64,000 nucleotides of DNA, from positions 78,417 to 142,416 of the forward strand of contig CBDFNA010000002.1 in NCBI GenBank assembly GCA_965249845.1, read 5' to 3'. A model generated the notes under the pieces. The model made no database searches, was not told where the DNA came from, and worked only from the letters and a program-made list of their open reading frames with translations. This stretch comes from Alphaproteobacteria bacterium (GTDB taxonomy: Bacteria > Pseudomonadota > Alphaproteobacteria > Bin65). Shown here piece after piece: positions 12,809 to 54,224 of the stretch; the first letter of the stretch is position 1; each line of letters begins with the position of its first letter. Position numbers and translations under genes: made by a program.

Positions 12809-13111
12809 CCGGCGACAGCGGCCGCTTCGCGCCAGACCGGCAGCAGACCATCGGCGAAAACCCGGTCCCGGGATTTGGCATGGCCGCCGGCATCCGGTGC
12901 AAGTTCGAAGTCTACAAGGACTCCGATCGAAACCGGTCTGGCCGTTGGGGGCGAATCGGGACTTTTGTATGCAGGATTCAAAATTGCCTGGGCGGCTTTT
13001 GCCCGCTGACGATTCAAGCGGCACGGCGGATTGGGCCGGGGCGACCGCGCCGCCGTCCCTTCGTTGCGCCAGCCTGTATACATGATGCCGCGCCGCGGGG
13101 GAGTATCCGCC

Positions 13112-14944
13112 ATGCCGCGTGACCTCTTCGGCGCCCGGCCCGGCCCGATGCCCGACCGCAGGCCTGACCGCAAGCCTGACCGCAAGCCTGACCGCAAACC
13201 GGCCCGCCGACGCATCCTGTATTGTTGGCTGCCCTGCTTCGCGACCGACCGGGTTGCGCGGCGGCGGCCGGCGCTGGCGTTGCAACCCGTCGCCATCGTC
13301 CGGCGCGAGCGCGGCCGGCGCTTTGCCGTGGCGGCCAACGGTCCGGCCCGGCGGAACGGGGTGCGGACCGGCCAGAGTCTGGCGGATGCGCGCAGCCTGT
13401 ACCCCGCCCTGACGGCGGTCGACGCCGACCCGACGGCCGACAGCCGCCTGCTGCTCGATCTGGCGCGCTGGTGCACACGATATACGCCCTGGGTCGCGCC
13501 GGAGGCGTCGGCGGAAGACGATTCGTCCGCCCCTCTTTCTGCCCCTCGGTCCGTCGAGGCCGAAGCCGCCCTGCTGCTCGATATCAGCGGCTGCGCCCAT
13601 CTGGCGGGCGGCGAGGCGGCGCTCGTAGAAGATCTCGTCAGCCGGCTGCAGGCTTTCGGTTTTACCGCCCGCTGCGCCGTCGCCGACACCCCGGGCGCCG
13701 CCCGGGCCTGGGCGCGCTACGGCGATCCGCTGTGTCCCGTCATTCCCGAAGGCGCGCAGGCCGGCTGGCTGAAGCCCCTGCCCGCCGCCGCCCTGCGCCT
13801 GCGCGAAGCGGACACCGAGACCCTGCAGCGCCTCGGCATCGCCACGGCCGGCGACCTGATGGCCCTGCCCCGCGCCGCCGTCGCGAACCGCTTCCAGGGC
13901 GGTTCTATCGCGAGCGTCCTCTACCGTTTGGACCGGGCTTTGGGCGCCGTACCGGAAAGCATCGCCCCGCTGCCGGCGCCGGCAGACTACAGCGTGCGCC
14001 AGCATTATGCCGAGCCGATCGGCACGCCGGAGGGCATGACCGCCGCCTTCGAGCGGCTGCTGCTCGCGCTGACCCGCAAGCTGGAAGCCGCCGGCATGGG
14101 CGCCCGGCAGCTCGAGTTCGGGATTATCCGCGCCGACGATACGCTGGACAGCGTGCGCATCGGGGTCAGCCGTCCGGCCCGCGACCCGGCCCATCTGGCG
14201 CGCCTGTTCGCGCCCCGGCTCGAAGGCCTGGACCCGGATCCGGGCATCGAAACCGTCATGCTGAGCGCCGTTTCGGTCGAACCCTTTACCATAGAACAAC
14301 AGGTATTTCAGAAAGTTAGAGGACAAAGCGCAATAGAACAATTACCTGAGAACAGGCAAAACCGGCCAGCGCTGCCGGGCCGGACAGACAGCAGCGCCGT
14401 CGATGCGCTGATCGACCGGCTGGCCAACCGGCTGGGCCGCACGGCGGTTCTGCGCGCCCTGCCCTGCGAAACCGCCCTGCCCGAAACCCAGACCGGTTAC
14501 GCGCCCGCCCTCGACATCCGCCCCGACGACCCGGCGCTCGACTGGGCCGCCTGGCAGGCCCCGGAGCGCCTGACCGGCCCGGCCCGGCCGGTGCGCCTGC
14601 TCGAAACGCCCGAACGGGTCGAGGCGCCGGTTGAGGCGCCGGGAGAGACCGCGTCCAACGACCCGGCAGTCACCCCGCTTCCGGCGCCGCCCGGTGCCGC
14701 GCCGGGCCGTTTCGCCTGGCGCCGCCGGACCTTTCGGACCGTCGCCGCCGAAGGCCCGGCCCGCCGCCTCGGCCGCTGGTGGCACGGCGAAACCGCCGTC
14801 CGCGACTACTGGCAGGTGGCGGCGGTTCCCGCCGACGCTGCGGACGACATTTCGGACGGGGCCGCGCCGGTCCGCCTCTGGCTCTGCCGCGACCCGGCGG
14901 CAGGCCCGGCGCACCGATGGTCGGTCCACGGGCTGATGGGATGA
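13112..14944 (+). CDS. imuB: ImuB (inactive Y-family polymerase homologue)
   Basis: ILYCWLP, GVRTGQSLADARSL, LARWCTRYTPWVA, LDISGCAHL.GGE, LIDRLANRLG, RDYW...LWL. Start chosen from RBS gggggag. Confidence 0.9.
   Translation: MPRDLFGARPGPMPDRRPDRKPDRKPDRKPARRRILYCWLPCFATDRVARRRPALALQPVAIVRRERGRRFAVAANGPARRNGVRTGQSLADARSLYPALTAVDADPTADSRLLLDLARWCTRYTPWVAPEASAEDDSSAPLSAPRSVEAEAALLLDISGCAHLAGGEAALVEDLVSRLQAFGFTARCAVADTPGAARAWARYGDPLCPVIPEGAQAGWLKPLPAAALRLREADTETLQRLGIATAGDLMALPRAAVANRFQGGSIASVLYRLDRALGAVPESIAPLPAPADYSVRQHYAEPIGTPEGMTAAFERLLLALTRKLEAAGMGARQLEFGIIRADDTLDSVRIGVSRPARDPAHLARLFAPRLEGLDPDPGIETVMLSAVSVEPFTIEQQVFQKVRGQSAIEQLPENRQNRPALPGRTDSSAVDALIDRLANRLGRTAVLRALPCETALPETQTGYAPALDIRPDDPALDWAAWQAPERLTGPARPVRLLETPERVEAPVEAPGETASNDPAVTPLPAPPGAAPGRFAWRRRTFRTVAAEGPARRLGRWWHGETAVRDYWQVAAVPADAADDISDGAAPVRLWLCRDPAAGPAHRWSVHGLMG
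13151..13198 (+). repeat. 12-bp tandem repeat x4 in imuB 5' end (PDRR/PDRK)
   Basis: cccgaccgcagg cctgaccgcaag cctgaccgcaag cctgaccgcaaa. Confidence 0.9.
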
Positions 14945-15006: not shown

Positions 15007-15243
15007 ATGGCCACGCTCACGATCCGCAACTTGGACGAAAAAACCGTCGAACGGTTGAAGCAGCACGCCCGCCAGAATGAGCGCTCACTCGAAGCCGAAG
15101 TGCGCCATGTTCTGAACAACGCCGCCCAAACCCTTACCCATCGGGAATTTTGGGCGCGGGCCGACGCGATCGCCGCGATGACGCCGCGCGATATCGCGCA
15201 GACCGATAGCGTAACCCTCCTGCGAGAGGACCGGGACCGTTGA
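15007..15243 (+). CDS. FitA/Arc-like ribbon-helix-helix antitoxin
   Basis: MATLTIRNLDE.TVERLKQHARQNERSLEAEVRHVL...LLREDRDR; stop overlaps toxin start. Confidence 0.85.
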   Translation: MATLTIRNLDEKTVERLKQHARQNERSLEAEVRHVLNNAAQTLTHREFWARADAIAAMTPRDIAQTDSVTLLREDRDR

Positions 15244-15734
15244 CGCCGCTCGCATCGACTCCTGCCGTATCGAATTCCCCGCCGTCGAATGTCGTTCCGT
15301 TCGCGCCGCGCCACTTTGTGATCGACGCCAGCGTGGCCATCAAATGGTATGTTGCCGAAGATCGCTATCGGGCAGCGCGCGCACTGGAACATTTCGGCAA
15401 CCTCTTGGCGGCGCCCGACTTTCTTGCTGTCGAATTGGCCAATATCGCCTGGAAGAAGGCACGCCTGAAACAGATCGAGCCGCAGCACGCTGCCCTGATC
15501 GCAGCGCCCGAGGCCCTGTCGCGGGTCGCTCTCCTGCCCAACGGGCCGCTGACCGCGGCGGCTTTCGTGTGCGCCATGGAACTCGACCATCCCGTCTACG
15601 ACTGCCTGTATCTGGCCTGCGCCGTGCATCTCGGCGGTGTGCTGATTACGGCCGACGACCGGTTCGTTCGCACTGTTGCCGACAGCGCCTATGCCCGTTT
15701 CGTGCGCCCGCTCGGCGACCTGCCGCCGGTCTAG
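15240..15734 (+). CDS. vapC: PIN-domain toxin (VapC/FitB family)
   Basis: VIDASVAIKW, ELANIAWKK, DHPVYDCLYLA, LITADDRF; acidic PIN residues present. Confidence 0.88.
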   Translation: MTPLASTPAVSNSPPSNVVPFAPRHFVIDASVAIKWYVAEDRYRAARALEHFGNLLAAPDFLAVELANIAWKKARLKQIEPQHAALIAAPEALSRVALLPNGPLTAAAFVCAMELDHPVYDCLYLACAVHLGGVLITADDRFVRTVADSAYARFVRPLGDLPPV

Positions 15735-15863
15735 GAGGCGGAAAGATGCGACGCTTCCGGACAGCTTCTTTACATTTCCTGACACTTGCCGACATTCCCC
15801 CGGCAAGCGGAGCGCGCCATGCCCTTTGACGGCCGCCCCGCCGCCCTGCCCGGCCCCCCCGGT

Positions 15864-15908
15864 CCGGTCCCTGGTCCGGTCCCTGGCCCGGTCCCTGGCC
15901 CGGTCCCC
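15864..15908 (+). repeat. 12-bp tandem repeat (~3.75 units) after a C7 run at the dnaE2 5' end
   Basis: ccggtccctggt ccggtccctggc ccggtccctggc ccggtcccc; C7 run at 15854-15860. Confidence 0.9.
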
Positions 15909-16292
15909 GTCTTTGCCCCCCGCTTATGCCGAGTTGCAGGTGACAACGAATTTCAGCTTCCTGCGCGGCGGCTCGCACCCGGAGGAGCTGGTGATGCGGG
16001 CGGCGGAGCTGGGCTACCGCGCGATCGGCGTGGCCGACCGCAACACGCTCGCCGGGGTCGTCCGGGCCCACAGCGCGGCCAAACGGACCGGGATCGAGCT
16101 GCTGGTCGGCGCCCGGCTGGATCTGCAGGACGGCGTCAGCCTGCTGTGTTTCCCGCAGGACAAGCCGGCCTACGCCCGCCTCTCCAGCCTGCTCACCCTG
16201 GGCAAGCGCCGGGCGGAGAAAGGCGATTGCCATCTCTGGCTGAGCGATCTGCCGGACTATGCCGAAGGCCAGTGCGTCGTCGTGCTGCCGCC

Positions 16293-16483
16293 CCTTCGAG
16301 ACGGGGCTTCGCCCTTCGAGACGAGGTTTCGAGACGCGATCCCTTCGGATCGCTCCTCAACCTCTCCTCAGGATGAAGCTGTAAATGGCGTAACGAACAC
16401 AACCCTTCATCCTGAGGAGGGCGTTGAGGAGGCCCGAAGGGCCGTCTCGAAACGCCCGTCTCGAAGGATGGCCGTCTCGAAGG
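16293..16483. repeat. Family A palindromic repeat (REPIN-like) inserted in frame within dnaE2
   Basis: Termini CCTTCGAGACGG...CCGTCTCGAAGG; inner arms CTCCTCAGGATGAAG / CTTCATCCTGAGGAG; the ORF reads through without a stop. Confidence 0.9.
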
Positions 16484-19352
16484 ACGGCCCGCCGGACTCT
16501 TCTGCGGCCAATGGAGATTTTTCCTTTATTCTCAAACGGATATCCGGGTTTTTTCCCGGCAATACCTGGCTCGCGGCAAGTTGCCTGTATCGCGGCGACG
16601 ACGCCCGGCGGCTGGACCGGCTGGCCGGGCTGGCGTTGGCGGCCGGGGTGCCGCTGGTCGCGACCAACGACGTCCATTACCACATCCCGGCGCGGCGGCC
16701 ATTGCAGGACGTGCTGACCTGCATCCGCGAACACTGCACCCTGGACGAGGCCGGCTTCCGTCTGTTCGACAATGCCGAACGCCATCTAAAAACCCCGCAG
16801 GAGATGGTGAATCTATTCCATACGCTGCCGTATGCTGTTCATCAACAGTCTGAAATCATTAAAAAAATAGATTTCTCACTCGATCAACTAAAATATGTCT
16901 ATCCCGTTGATCCAATACCTGAAGGAAGCACCCCTCAACAAGAGCTCGAACGGCTGACCTGGCGCGGCGCGGCGGAACGCTACGGTCGTCATGTGCCGTC
17001 CCGGGGTCGTAGCGGCCGTGCGGCATGAGCTGGAATTGATCGGGCAGCTCGGCTACGCGCCCTATTTCCTGACGGTGCATGACATCGTGCGCTATGCCCG
17101 CGGGCAGAAAATCCTGTGTCAGGGCCGGGGCTCGGCCGCCAACTCCGCGGTCTGCTACTGCCTCGGCATCACTGCCGTCGATCCCGGCAAGGTCGATCTG
17201 CTGTTCGAGCGCTTCGTCTCGGCCGAGCGCAACGAGCCGCCGGATATCGACGTCGATTTCGAGCATGAGCGGCGCGAGGAGGTGATCCAGTATATCTACG
17301 GCAAATACGGCCGCCACCGCGCCGGGCTGACGGCGACCGTCGTCACCTACCGGCCGCGCAGCGCGATCCGCGAGGTCGGCAAGGCGCTCGGCCTGTCGGA
17401 AGACACGGTCGATATCCTGGCCCGGACGGTCTGGGGCTGGAGCGACGACGGCCTGAAGCCGGACTACGATCCGCCAGACCGGGCTCGACCCGGCCGACGC
17501 CACCCTGCGCCGCGCCCTCCTGCTGGCGCTGGAGCTGGTCGGCTTCCCGCGCCACCTGTCCCAGCATACCGGCGGCTTCGTCATCACCGACGGGCCGTTG
17601 CACGAACTGGCGCCGATCGAGAATGCGGCCATGGAAAACCGCACGGTCGTCGAATGGGACAAGGACGATCTCGACGCGCTGGGCATCCTCAAGATCGACG
17701 TGCTGTCGCTCGGCATGCTCACCTGCATCCGCAAGGGCTTCGACCTGCTGGCGCAGCATTACGGCCGGCGCCACGACCTCGCCACCGTGCCGGCCGACGA
17801 TGCCGCGGTCTACGACATGATCTGCAAGGCCGACACGCTGGGCGTGTTCCAGATCGAGAGCCGGGCCCAGATGTCCATGCTACCGCGCCTGAAGCCGCGG
17901 GATTTCTACGATCTGGTGATCGAGGTCGCGATCGTCCGCCCCGGCCCGATCCAGGGCGACATGGTCCATCCCTATCTGCGCCGGCGCAACGGCGAGGAGG
18001 CCGTCGTCTTTCCGTCAAAGGAACTGGAGGACGTTCTGGGCAAGACCCTGGGCGTGCCCTTGTTCCAGGAGCAGGCGATGAAAATCGCCATCGTCGCCGC
18101 CGGCTTCACCCCGTCCGAGGCCGACCTGCTGCGCCGCGCCATGGCGACCTTCCGCAAGACCGGCAAGATCCACGGCTTCCACGCCAAGATGGTCGAGGGC
18201 ATGGTCGCCCGCGGCTACGAGCGCAGCTTCGCCGAGCGCTGCTTCCAGCAGATCGAGGGCTTCGGCGAATACGGCTTTCCGGAAAGCCACGCCGCCAGCT
18301 TCGCCCTGCTGGTCTATGTCTCGGCCTGGCTCAAATGCCACTATCCGGCGGCCTTCGCCTGCGCCCTGCTGAACAGCCAGCCGATGGGCTTCTATGCGCC
18401 GGCGCAGATCGTGCGCGACGCCCGCGAACACGGGGTCGAGGTGCTGCCGGTCGATGTCAACCGCAGCGTCTGGGACCATACGCTGGAGCCGGGCGCGGAC
18501 GGCGCCATGGCCCTGCGCCTCGGCTTCCGCCAGATCAAGGGTTTGCGCACGGAGGCGATGGACCGCTTGGTCGCGGCGCGCGGCAACGGCTATCCGGACC
18601 CGTGGACCCTGTGGCGGCGCGCCGGCCTGCCGGCGGCGGTGCTCGAGCGGCTGGCCCGCGCCGACGCCTTCGGCTCGCTCGGTCTGAACCGGCGGCAGGC
18701 ATTGTGGGCGGTGCGGCGCTTCCGGCCGGCGGCGCTGCCCCTGTTCGCGGCGATGGACGAGGACGAGCAGCCCGGCGATCCGCCGGCGCTGCTGCCGGCG
18801 ATGACCCTGGGCGAGCAGGTCGTCGACGATTACGCCAGCGTCCGCATGACCCTAAGGGCGCACCCCCTCGCCCTGCTGCGCGCCGAGGCGCCGTTCGACC
18901 GCGCGACGCCGCACCGCGAGCTGCTGAACTGCCGCAACGGCCAGCAGGTCGCGGTGAGCGGCCTGGTGCTGATCCGCCAGCGGCCGGGCACGGCCAAGGG
19001 CGTGGTGTTCATGACCCTGGAGGACGAGACCGGCGCCGCCAACGTGATCGTCTGGCCCCATGTGCTGGAGCGCTACCGGCCGATCGTGATGGGCAGCCGG
19101 CTGGTCCGGGTCGTCGGCGAAGTCCAGAAGGAGGGCATCGTCATCCATGTCGTCGCCCGCAAGCTGGAGGACCTGTCCTCCCGGCTCGACGGCCTGACCC
19201 GGCTCGACGCTCCCTTCGACCCAAAATTCGAAATCGCGCTTGCCCGGGCCGACGAGACCGCCCGCGAGGCCCGCGACCCCCGGGACTCAAAGCGCGACCC
19301 GCGCCGCGACCGGCTGCACAAGCAGATGTACCCGTCGCGGGATTTTCATTGA

Positions 19353-19547
19353 GCCCTTCGAGACGGGCGTCCTTCGAGACGGCCATTTCGAGACGGCGCT
19401 TCGCGCCTCCTCAATGGCCTCCTCAGGATGAAGGGGAGAAGTGGGGATTGCTCACCTCATACAGCTTCATCCTGAGGAGGGGCTGAGGAGCGATCCGTAG
19501 GATCGCGTCTCGAAGCCCCGTCTCGAAGGACGCCCGTCTCGAAGGGC
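19353..19547. repeat. Family A palindromic repeat filling the gap between convergent dnaE2 and acyl-CoA dehydrogenase stops
   Basis: Perfect 20-bp terminal inverted repeats gcccttcgagacgggcgtcc / ggacgcccgtctcgaagggc. Confidence 0.92.
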
Positions 19548-20695
19548 TACAGCGACCTTGCGATCAGTTCCTTCATGATCTCGTTGGTGCCGCCGTAGAT
19601 TTTCTGCACCCGGGCGTCGGCATACATGCGCGAGATCGGGAATTCGTCCATGAAGCCGTAACCGCCGAACAGTTGCAGGCACTCGTCGATCACCTCGTTC
19701 TGCTTCTGGGCGCACCACCATTTCACCATCGCGGCGGTCGTGACGTCGAGGTCGCCGGCGAGATGGCGCTGCAGGCAGTTGTCGACGAAGACCCGGGCGA
19801 TATGCGCCTCGGTCTTGCATTCGGCGAGCTTGAAGCGGGTGTTCTGGAAATCCATGATCGATTTACCGAACGCCTTGCGCTGCTTGACATAGTCGGTCGT
19901 GAGTTCGATCGCGAGGTCCATCGCCGCGCAGGCGCCGACGCCGATGATCAGCCGCTCCTGCGGCAGCTGGTTCATGAGCTGGAAGAAGCCCTGGCCTTCC
20001 TCCGTGCCGAGCAGGTTGGCGGCCGGCACCTTGACATCGTCGAAGAACAGTTCCGACGTGTCTTGCGCCTTCAGGCCGAGCTTCTCCAGGTTGCGGCCGC
20101 GGGAAAACCCCTCGGCCTCGGCAGTTTCGACGACGATCAGCGAGACGCCGCGCGCCTTCTCCTCCGGGTCGGTCTTGGCGACGACGATGACAAGATCGGC
20201 ATGCTGGCCGTTGGTGATGAAGGTCTTCTGGCCGTTGACGGCATACTGGTTGCCGGTCATCCGCGCGGTCGTGCGCACGGCCTGGAGGTCGGAGCCGGTG
20301 CCCGGCTCGGTCATGGCGATGGCGCCGACCAGTTCGCCGGCCGCCATCTTCGGCAGCCAACGGCGTTTCTGCTCTTCCGAGCCGTAGACCAGGATGTATT
20401 GGGCGACGATGCCGCTGTGCACGGCGTTGCCGAGGCTGCGGACATTGGCCCGGCCCTGTTCATACAGGATGACCGATTCGTGGGCGAAAGTGCCGCCGGC
20501 GCCACCGTATTCCTCCGGCACGCTGGCCAGCAGCAGACCGGCCTCGCCCGCCTTTTTCCACATCTCCCGCGGCATGATCCCGGCCTTCGCCCATTCCTCC
20601 TCGTGCGGGACGAATTCCCTGTCGAAGAAGCGGCCCGCCGAATCCTGCAGCATCGACAGTTCTTCGGTCATCCAGGGGGAAACATAGTCGCCCAT
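19547..20695 (-). CDS. Acyl-CoA dehydrogenase
   Basis: IAMTEPGTGSDL, GQKTFITNG, QERL, RKAFG, QLFGGYG...YADARVQKIYGGTNEIMK. Confidence 0.95.
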   Translation of the reverse strand: MGDYVSPWMTEELSMLQDSAGRFFDREFVPHEEEWAKAGIMPREMWKKAGEAGLLLASVPEEYGGAGGTFAHESVILYEQGRANVRSLGNAVHSGIVAQYILVYGSEEQKRRWLPKMAAGELVGAIAMTEPGTGSDLQAVRTTARMTGNQYAVNGQKTFITNGQHADLVIVVAKTDPEEKARGVSLIVVETAEAEGFSRGRNLEKLGLKAQDTSELFFDDVKVPAANLLGTEEGQGFFQLMNQLPQERLIIGVGACAAMDLAIELTTDYVKQRKAFGKSIMDFQNTRFKLAECKTEAHIARVFVDNCLQRHLAGDLDVTTAAMVKWWCAQKQNEVIDECLQLFGGYGFMDEFPISRMYADARVQKIYGGTNEIMKELIARSL

Positions 20696-20755
20696 CGATA
20701 TTTCCTTTGTATCTCAGCCGCTAACAGTCGGTTCCGTACGCCCGCGCCCGCGGGT

Positions 20756-21587
20756 TCAGATCAGCAGGCCGCCGCCGGCGACGATCACCTGGCCGCTGAT
20801 ATAGTCGCTCTCCGGCGTGCAGAAGAGATAGACGGCGTCGGCCGCCTCCTCCGGCGTGCCGCCGCGGCCCATCGGGATGATATTTTCCATCATCTGGATC
20901 ATGTGCGGCTGGACGCCGACGCGGATATCCCGGCCGCCCGATATCGAGCACCGGCGGGTCGTCCTTGTCCATCGGCTGGGTCATGCGGGTCTTGATATAG
21001 CCGAAGGCGACGCAGTTCACGCACACCTTGTAGCGGCCCCACTCCTTCGCCATCGTCCGGGTCATGCCGATCATGGCGGACTTGGCGGCCGAATAGTTGA
21101 TCTGGCCGGCATTGCCGTAGAGCCCGGCGATCGACGAGATATTGACCACCTTGCGGATGACCTCGATGCCCTCCATCGCCTCCTTCTTGGCGGCGATGCG
21201 GATCGGCTCGGCGGCGGCGCGCAGGATGCGGAACGGCGCCTTGACATGGACGTCCATGACCGCGTCCCACTGTTCGTCGGTCATTTTCTGGATGACGCTG
21301 TCCCAGGTGTAGCCGGCGTTGTTGACGATAATGTCGATGCCGCCCCAGGCGTCCATCGCCGCCTTGACGAAACGGTCGGCGAAATCGTCGGCGGTGACAT
21401 CGCCGGCGCAGGCGACCGCAGCGCCGCCCAGCGCCCGGATCTCCTCGGCGGTTTCGTTGGCGGGATCGGCGTCAAGATCGTTGACCGCGACCCGCGCGCC
21501 CTCACGCGCCAGCTTGAGCGCCAGCGCCCTGCCGATGCCGCGCCCCGAGCCCGAGACCAGGGCGACCTTGCCGTCGAGTTTAGCCAT
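20756..21587 (-). pseudogene. SDR / 3-oxoacyl-reductase-like gene with one +1 frameshift
   Basis: SGSGRGIG, NNAG, NYSAAK. After an extra G at ~20938 the alternate frame gives ...IPMGRGGTPEEAADAVYLFCTPESDYISGQVIVAGGGLLI*. Span 832 bp = 3n+1. Confidence 0.8.
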
Positions 21588-21657
21588 GCGTTTTCGTGCT
21601 TTCCGTTGAATTTCAGGCAGTTGAGAGAAAGTGTGGAGAAATTTCCGGCAGTTGGCG

Positions 21658-22068
21658 TCAGCCAACTGCCACCACGGCCTCGCCTTTCAGCTTCACATCG
21701 CCGTTTTCGTCCGTCGCGGTGATGTCGAGGCGCAGGCGTTGCTCGCCGTCCTGTTCAAATTTCTCCGTCACCGTGCCGTTGCAATGGATTTCCGCGCCGA
21801 CCTGGGTGATGGCGGCGAAGCGGACGCCCCAGCTGCGCAGGGCCGATTGCGGCACGATGCCGGTCAGCGCCCGGCCGAGCCAGGCCATCACCAGCATGCC
21901 GTGGGCGAAGACGTCGCCGACGCCGGCCTGCCGGGTGAAATCGATGTCGATATGGATCGGGTTGTGGTCGCCGGAGGCGCCGGCGTAAAGGGCCAGCGTC
22001 TGCCGGGAGACCCGGTCGATCACCAGTTCGGGGATGGCGTCGCCGACGCCGAGGGCTGCTGCGTTCAT
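21658..22068 (-). CDS. MaoC-family dehydratase (R-specific enoyl-CoA hydratase-like)
   Basis: YAGASGDHNPIHID...FAHGML hot-dog hydratase motif. Confidence 0.9.
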   Translation of the reverse strand: MNAAALGVGDAIPELVIDRVSRQTLALYAGASGDHNPIHIDIDFTRQAGVGDVFAHGMLVMAWLGRALTGIVPQSALRSWGVRFAAITQVGAEIHCNGTVTEKFEQDGEQRLRLDITATDENGDVKLKGEAVVAVG

Positions 22069-22530: not shown

Positions 22531-22630
22531 CTCTGCGTCCTTCGTCTTCGGGAACTGCTTTCCGTTGGGGCTATCGCCCGTGCCCCGGCCTGTCAACGCG
22601 GCAAACGGATAGAGGCGCGGAATTGGGCAT

Positions 22631-22783
22631 CCTTCGAGACGGCCATTTCGAGACGGCGCTGGCGCGCCTCCTCAATAGCCTCCTCAGGATGAAGAGTTTG
22701 TTGGCTCACCGATTTCGCCTTCATCCTGAGGAGAGGCTGAGGAGCGGTCTGAAAGACCGCGTCTCGAAGCCTCGTCTCGAAGG
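22631..22783. repeat. Family A palindromic repeat in the divergent MaoC/P450 intergenic region
   Basis: Same arms as the 16293 and 19353 copies; different central spacer. Confidence 0.9.
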
Positions 22784-22854
22784 ACGGCCGCGGCTTGCAT
22801 TCCCACAGCCAGACGCTAGGGTCGTAACGCGCCATCCGGAACCGCAGATCCCTT

Positions 22855-52067: not shown

Positions 52068-52110
52068 CGCCCGGCTGCCCCCCTTCCCGTCATTTCGACT
52101 GGAGGCGCGT

Positions 52111-52264
52111 CCTTCGAGACGGGACTTCGAGACGCGATTCTCCGAACCGCTCCTCAGCCCCTCCTCAGGATGAAGCTGAGAGTGTGGAGCCAATAAACTT
52201 CTTCATCCTGAGGAGGCCATTGAGGAGGCGCGCGAGCGCCGTCTCGAAATGGCCGTCTCGAAGG
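52111..52264. repeat. Family A palindromic repeat (preceded by a partial family C unit at 52088)
   Basis: Same arms as the other family A copies; unique spacer. Confidence 0.9.
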
Positions 52265-53956: not shown

Positions 53957-54042
53957 GGAAAAATGCGCAGTCTGCGCGTCGATTTTTTTCTATTTACAGA
54001 CCGGTCGTTCTATTTTCGGTCGGACAGCCGGTATGCCGGCGC

Positions 54043-54200
54043 CCTTCGAGACGGGGCTTCGAGACGCGGCCCTGCGGACCGCTCCTCAGCCCCTCCTCAG
54101 GATGAAGCTGGAAAAAGCAAAACAAACACAACCCTTCATCCTGAGGAGGCCATTGAGGAGCAGTGCGCAGCACTGCGTCTCGAAATGGCCGTCTCGAAGG
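54043..54200. repeat. Family A palindromic repeat
   Basis: Same arms; spacer shares aacacaaccc with the dnaE2-internal copy. Confidence 0.9.
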
Positions 54201-54224
54201 ACGATTGACGTCCGCTACCCGCCC

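Follow-up and report, generated by a model that had tools for sequence, protein, structure and literature searches.

The dnaE2 locus and its palindromic insert

The window, the whole stretch of 64,000 nucleotides analysed here, carries a dnaE2 gene for an error-prone Pol III alpha subunit, preceded by an imuB-like gene of the Y family and, between the two, by a FitA-like RHH antitoxin and PIN toxin pair (Table 1). The pieces of dnaE2 match the Pfam PHP, DNA_pol3_alpha, finger, HHH_6 and OB families, the same domain set as is found in intact alleles. A DnaE2, the error-prone C-family polymerase of imuA-imuB-dnaE2 cassettes, is recognised by the order PHP, Pol III alpha, finger, HHH and OB at a length of about 1050-1150 aa, by the imuB-like Y-family neighbour and by a separate replicative DnaE1 elsewhere, and all of these are present, with DnaE1 intact at C3:2332673-2336188 and 32% identical to DnaE2. 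As assembled, dnaE2 falls into four frame segments separated by three single bases that are extra in comparison with each relative inspected, on which the preliminary description was silent.

Table 1 Genes, repeat copies and frame breaks of the dnaE2 region and of the remaining window, with the basis of each assignment.
Feature	Position	Strand	Description and basis
imuB-like Y-family (IMS) gene	13031..14944	+	Upstream of dnaE2, mutagenesis cassette; Pfam, L033/L034 gene calls
FitA-like RHH antitoxin and PIN toxin	15007..15734	+	Between imuB and dnaE2; L033/L034 Pfam gene calls, coordinates by alignment
dnaE2 (error-prone Pol III alpha)	15819..19352	+	ATG at 15819; frames 0, 1, 2, 0 as assembled; Pfam
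First frame break	15917..15922	+	C6 run, one extra base relative to intact L033; beside a 24-nt Pro-rich repeat length difference
In-frame palindromic repeat in dnaE2	16294..16488	+	195 nt, 65 codons, LRDGASPFETRFRDAIPSDRSSTSPQDEAVNGVTNTTLHPEEGVEEARRAVSKRPSRRMAVSKDG; alignments, RNA fold, AlphaFold2
Second frame break	17003..17006	+	GGGG run, one extra G relative to 7 relatives and L033
Third frame break	17468	+	Extra G, TAC[G]ATC, relative to 7 relatives and L033; non-homopolymer
Repeat copy	19352..19548	-	Intergenic, abuts the dnaE2 stop codon; alignment
Repeat copy	22625..22791	-	Intergenic; alignment
Repeat copy	52102..52264	+	Intergenic; alignment
Repeat copy	54035..54200	+	Intergenic; alignment

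A full repeat element lies in the dnaE2 frame without a stop codon, as the preliminary description had proposed and as the alignment with other copies, blastn and the reading frame bear out. The roughly 65 added residues stand as described, while the extent given there, 16293-16483, shifts by one to five bases to 16294-16488. The insert peptide (LRDGASPFET...MAVSKDG) enters the protein as ...GQCVVVLPP[65 aa]PPDSSAANGDFSFILKRISGFFPGNTWLAAS..., with the DnaE2 frame on both flanks and with the junction peptides ...VVVLPPLRDGASPFETR and ...MAVSKDGPPDSSAANGDFSFILK at 16294 and 16488, respectively. The element aligns end to end with four other copies in the window, all of them intergenic, as had also been claimed. 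The orthologue alignment that had been called for delimits the insert from the outside: six dnaE2 genes of the same genus are uninterrupted (1105-1124 aa), lack the insert, and bring its two flanks within only 17-23 residues of each other in all six genomes, as in DGIPECDPPDRAAGGDG. Among empty alleles the nearest, that of L035 (protein P0006, with 97% overall identity), reads CTGCCGCCC-GGTGACGTTCCGGAATGCGAC-CCGCCGGAC at this site, and relative to it the element replaces 21 nt (GDVPECD) with a net gain of 58 aa.

The placement of the element inside the PHP domain, likewise put forward earlier, is supported by the end of the Pfam match and by structure prediction. On the N-terminal piece the Pfam PHP match runs as far as residue 95, the profile having 164 positions. 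In the AlphaFold2 model of the intact homologue P0003 (80-sequence alignment; mean pLDDT 78, pTM 0.78), the prediction that had been suggested as a check, the insert occupies residues 153-221 between a strand (143-148) and a helix (219-236). Model confidence is low throughout the insert (pLDDT 22-32) and high on the flanking strand and helix (about 94), and apart from one short helix the insert has no predicted secondary structure. The low pLDDT within the insert and the well-folded flanks suggest that the insert forms a disordered loop on the surface of a PHP barrel that is otherwise intact. Aligned by sequence, the site falls at approximately residues 133-140 of E. coli Pol III alpha, and the length of this PHP loop ranges from 0 to 75 aa over 80 DnaE2 sequences. 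Folded as RNA, the dnaE2 copy forms one long hairpin of -134 kcal/mol, against an average of -81 for shuffled sequences (z = -11.6).

Reading frame and site history of dnaE2

A protein search with the read-through DnaE2 retrieves two clusters, P0003 (1168 aa, 4 members) and P0004 (1157 aa, 37 members), with 41 member sequences in total. Both are intact and, at 99% identity along their full length, share the 65-aa insert unchanged and match the read-through of the window exactly at both internal frameshift sites. Their DNA, on the ENA metagenome contigs L033 and L037, lacks the extra bases. Over 7.7 kb of 98% identity with L033, the window displays six single-base extras, three in dnaE2, two in a downstream short-chain dehydrogenase gene (20744 and 20937) and one in a spacer (14999), together with one single-base loss inside an intergenic repeat. 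These indels hit coding DNA in proportion to its share, which makes the pattern error-like. The surplus base of the C6 run belongs to a 25-nt block at 15892, composed of 24 nt of Pro-rich repeat plus one base.

Outside the insert, the window differs from L033 and L037, all of them insert carriers, with pS 0.045-0.051 and pN/pS 0.11-0.12, thus revealing purifying selection since the insertion. The frame of the genome at large was assessed with 135 long conserved ORFs from 380 kb of a relative (G004). Fourteen of the 135 match in two or more frames, and in about 7 of these we read the switch as lying inside the protein; the 21 in-alignment stops all lie in upstream extensions or non-coding frames and none was judged an internal nonsense codon. 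By our own count, single-base insertions relate to deletions as about 20 to 7 genome-wide. Since near-identical alleles with the same insert are intact and pN/pS is about 0.11, the three frame breaks are most likely assembly errors, at odds of about 80:20 over true decay in this strain. Whichever the cause, the allele that bears the insert is intact in the species and under constraint there.

The density of the breaks, three in 3.5 kb against a genome-wide estimate of about one per 10 kb, and the position of the extra base at 17468 outside any homopolymer would fit a genuine recent pseudogene with three real +1 frameshifts, in which the open frame of the insert is left over from before the decay; dnaE2 is, moreover, dispensable under non-stress conditions. 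Such decay is nevertheless unlikely. The lesions are all single-base insertions, two of them in homopolymer runs, and the unrelated neighbouring dehydrogenase has two more extra bases; nonsense codons, deletions and an excess of non-synonymous change are missing from the gene (pN/pS 0.11), the 41 near-identical sequences are intact, and the relatives are long-read MAGs. Among these MAGs, the closest that bear a name are labelled 'Alphaproteobacteria/Rhodospirillaceae bacterium', and one was obtained from a sponge. The preliminary description had named a true pseudogene in a genome with no other coding insertion as the outcome that would count against it; the intact alleles, the purifying selection and a second coding copy, in a gene for a GIY-YIG–MarR protein (see below), point the other way.

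Three further features of the region accompany these comparisons. The Pro-rich N-terminal tail of DnaE2 (15850-15925; PGPV repeats with a 12-nt period) varies in repeat number among strains, and beside the extra C the window is 24 nt longer than L033. A low-GC patch inside dnaE2 (16790-16950, 36-38% GC) encodes the expected DnaE2 segment and is common at the DNA level to 6 of 6 same-genus relatives but absent from a genome of another genus (G013), and is therefore an old feature of the genus and not a recent recombination in the strain. The short-chain dehydrogenase gene (20721-21665, minus strand) encodes 314 aa as assembled, with a C-terminus altered relative to the 276 aa of L033, and its extra bases at 20744 and 20937 are probably further assembly errors.

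Close strains differ in the state of the insertion site. The 2.9-Mb contig L034 (P0005, 95% identical) carries an insert with the same two junctions that is 30 nt shorter; its divergence exceeds that of the gene five-fold (pS 0.53 versus 0.10), and among the window copies it is most similar (89%) to the one at 54034-54204 (54035-54200 in Table 1). The site is empty in L035, which is closer to the window (pS 0.086) than L034. A remnant of 18 nt, CTGCGCGACGGGGCCTCG, remains in L036 (P0008, 92% identical), encodes LRDGAS and matches the first 18 nt of the element at 15 positions. The insert is free of substitutions over its 195 nt in three strains whose divergence elsewhere is about 1.5%. Read from these alleles, the history of the site is not that of one clean single insertion. 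The simplest reading is that the element inserted long ago and that the site was later converted from other copies in the genome, partly deleted and exchanged between strains; alternatively, repeated site-specific insertion may have produced the same series.

The repeat family, its coding copies and inserts in other DnaE2 lineages

A blastn search with the window copies recovers 56 loci of the repeat family in the genome (4.28 Mb, 3 contigs, 65% GC), 46 of them at least 140 nt long. The element measures 150-195 nt and in nearly all copies is bounded by the terminal inverted repeats CGTCCTTCGAGACG / CGTCTCGAAGGACG; its arms contain two or three TTCGAGACG sub-repeats each, and the inner arms CTCCTCAGGATGAAG / CTTCATCCTGAGGAG enclose a variable central spacer. 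No direct repeat indicative of a target-site duplication is visible in the flanks of the 46 longer copies. Searched against Rfam, the repeat matches no family above threshold, and an identity as a miRNA hairpin was rejected, the Rfam matches being sub-threshold and due to chance only. The copies are strongly clustered, in particular at C3:1334500-1350400, C3:1651200-1665000 and C3:1772800-1780000, with for example six copies in 16 kb and many neighbours 0.5-6 kb apart. On average 1.35 of the six frames of a copy are open and copy lengths are evenly spread over the three classes modulo 3, so that about 7% of random insertions would stay in frame and free of stops; an in-frame, stop-free landing in dnaE2 is thus no remarkable coincidence.

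A Y1/RAYT transposase was not found in the genome by a PF01797 search or by tblastn with the RAYT-like protein of relatives. Some close relatives possess, between the PIN gene and dnaE2, a RAYT-like gene (NF047646; its 61-64 bits fall short of the 80-bit cut-off), the RHH/PIN and RAYT-like regions being 15007-15734 in the window, L035:699-1511, L036:784-1428 and L037:787-1425. In L037 this gene is flanked by GTAGGGGAGGGTTTGAAACCCTCCCCTAC hairpins; it is absent here, where 9 copies of that REP remain. As a mobiliser of the element, RAYT was rejected, since the RAYT-like gene of the relatives has this different REP and is missing from the genome. The GIY-YIG protein was likewise rejected in this role, as it is present in just two copies, neither of them associated with the element.

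The search for other in-frame copies that had been recommended yields a second one, at C3:1334528-1334702 (minus strand), read in frame between the GIY-YIG and MarR domains of a GIY-YIG–MarR protein. Homologues with the element in the linker form seven clusters of 320-401 aa, with 77-97% identity where they align. GIY-YIG–MarR fusions at a greater distance (282-296 aa, 52-53% identity) are without it, so the fusion is older than the element. This copy, too, occupies a flexible linker. The two coding copies share one reading frame of the element (LRDGAS...PQDEA...LHPEEGVEEAR...), and in it the conserved arms are stop-free. The 65-aa insert peptide matches only five proteins among 1.84 billion representatives, the best being a 328-aa GIY-YIG–MarR homologue; P0126 (37% identity) is a cadherin-repeat protein, and the remaining four share repeat-derived motifs. 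The GIY-YIG–MarR gene itself spans C3:1334038-1335072 (minus strand) with another repeat copy just upstream of its start, and in one homologue (P0130, 401 aa) the left arm of the element is tandemly expanded within the linker. In other alphaproteobacteria, TrmH, FdhD and CysQ-like proteins are fused to small GIY-YIG domains of the same type.

Coding copies thus number 2 of the 46 that are at least 140 nt long. Under a codon-position GC filter applied to all 56 loci, none of the copies has coding signal on its two flanks together, and the dnaE2 copy alone is flagged, with a coding left flank and an open but borderline right flank. Most long ORFs that span copies were discarded as spurious GC-rich frames or as cases in which the element lies upstream of the true start; the latter holds for argH and for a MaoC-like gene at C3:1664743, which are not coding insertions.

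Inserts of a similar kind occur in the DnaE2 loop of other lineages. An intact 1130-aa dnaE2 in G013 has a palindromic repeat in the same loop, which matches itself on the opposite strand and recurs at about a dozen further genomic sites (20 matches in total). Palindromic repeats are likewise present in the DnaE2 loop of three Rhodoplanes MAGs, and the loop inserts of three other metagenome lineages fold at -59, -98 and -84 kcal/mol. In one of these lineages (L040:5784-7286 and L040:10538-10690) the loop repeat is also found in the imuB-like gene and again in the same dnaE2, and the genes concerned were called as intact. The inserts that occupy this loop in other lineages are unrelated in sequence.

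Lineage-specific inserts of at least 25 aa number 48, distributed over 34 of 80 DnaE2 proteins and clustered after P0003 residues about 150-219, 382, 549 and 974. In contrast, none is found among 80 DnaE1 proteins obtained by a parallel search and alignment (55-96% identity, same database, same query region), and the standard deviation of length is 65 aa in DnaE2 versus 9.6 aa in DnaE1. The two samples are not genome-matched, and the figure of 48 versus 0 is therefore a lead, not proof. The contrast fits a non-essential polymerase used only in the SOS response being far more tolerant of insertions than its essential paralogue, and hints that DnaE2 collects palindromic inserts unusually often. 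A broader proposal, that DnaE2 is a preferred sink for in-frame palindromic repeats of unrelated REP/MITE families across Alphaproteobacteria at a few recurrent permissive sites, is doubtful at present. If it were true, the role as a sink might go beyond relaxed constraint: hairpin inserts might tune the expression of the mutagenic polymerase, or the SOS-induced dnaE2 locus might be unusually exposed to the insertion mechanism.

These data also bear on a possible function of the insert, as a stable mRNA hairpin that would throttle translation or stability of the polymerase message or as an acidic/basic loop that would mediate an interaction. The strength of the hairpin (-134 kcal/mol, z = -11.6) and the recurrence of palindromic inserts at the same loop in several lineages would agree with a function, yet the inserts of other lineages are unrelated in sequence, one close relative of the window strain has an empty site and another is down to 18 nt, and the peptide is predicted to be disordered. 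The invariance of the 195 nt among three strains with about 1.5% divergence elsewhere is a weak signal, zero differences standing against about three expected (P about 0.05), and the DnaE2 excess of inserts of at least 25 aa (48 versus none in DnaE1) is equally explained by relaxed constraint on the non-essential paralogue. A functional insert is accordingly very improbable.

Interpretation and comparison with known elements

The reading that we favour, with a probability of about three in four, is that the in-frame insert in the variable DnaE2 loop is a palindromic, MITE/REPIN-like piece of tolerated selfish DNA in a functional polymerase, the frame breaks being assembly errors. A non-autonomous palindromic mobile repeat would have entered the DNA for a variable surface loop of the PHP domain, replacing the 21 nt and adding the net 58 residues. 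One frame of the element is stop-free in the conserved arms and its length would have preserved the reading frame, so that the insert would be translated as a disordered loop that leaves the fold undisturbed and the polymerase functional. The insertion, present in intact and constrained alleles, would persist as tolerated selfish DNA, presumably translated and neutral, with selection keeping those in-frame insertions that land in permissive loops. The three breaks would reflect single-base insertion errors of long-read metagenome assembly and not gene decay. Against this reading stand the density of the breaks in this assembly, the mixed allele history of the site, and the searches that revealed neither a transposase or RAYT able to move the element nor a target-site duplication.

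On this interpretation selfish DNA within protein-coding genes is extended to a GC-rich alphaproteobacterial lineage with a genome of free-living size and to a DNA polymerase. The filled, empty, remnant and re-homogenised alleles of close strains provide a natural series for the gain, conversion and loss of an insert, and the 48 versus 0 inserts of DnaE2 and DnaE1 give a testable lead on gene essentiality as a filter of mobile-repeat insertions. The permissive PHP loop could serve tagging or engineering. The locus further cautions that 'pseudogenes' called from frameshifts in long-read MAGs should be checked against the reads.

Large insertions into the PHP domain have a precedent in PolC and some DnaE1 proteins, in which an exonuclease domain lies inside it (Timinskas et al., PMC3919608); the PHP barrel thus tolerates large loop insertions. 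The PolC insertion is a folded, functional and ancient domain, whereas the DnaE2 insert is predicted to be a disordered repeat-derived peptide, and the PDB sequence alignment that relates the DnaE2 site to PolC covers the first 90 PolC residues only.

Similarly to the MITEs of the ERIC/IRU, Correia, BOX and cyanobacterial types, the element is small, has terminal inverted repeats and many dispersed copies, is without coding capacity for a transposase and enters occasional translational fusions (PMC10969869). It appears to differ from them in two respects: the flanks of the 46 longer copies show no target-site duplication, and a transposase search that covered Y1 enzymes identified no parent IS with the same ends. 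With REP/REPIN sequences it shares a dispersed, mostly intergenic distribution as inverted-repeat doublets, long hairpins, clustering and the lack of a visible target-site duplication. In contrast to REP/REPIN, it has no detectable cognate RAYT in this genome, is longer and has sub-repeated termini.

The closest parallel is provided by the Rickettsia palindromic elements (RPE), reportedly described by Ogata et al. in 2000. RPEs, like the dnaE2 element, are short palindromes (about 100-200 nt) with a stop-free frame that are found in frame in unrelated genes, at fold-compatible positions, and are kept in functional genes; the two coding copies described here behave in the same manner. The parallel drawn in the preliminary description, with a different repeat family, therefore holds as an analogy and not as family membership, since the two have no sequence relationship. 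The hosts also differ, a reduced intracellular genome in the case of RPEs and a 4.3-Mb, 65% GC genome of an uncultured Rhodospirillales-type alphaproteobacterium here, and so does the coding share, which reaches nearly half of the copies in some RPE families against the 2 of 46 found here. In-frame fusions of MITEs have been called 'not unusual', RPEs being the extreme case (PMC10969869). The phenomenon is already known from the RPEs of Rickettsia, and the dnaE2 insert is a new example of it.
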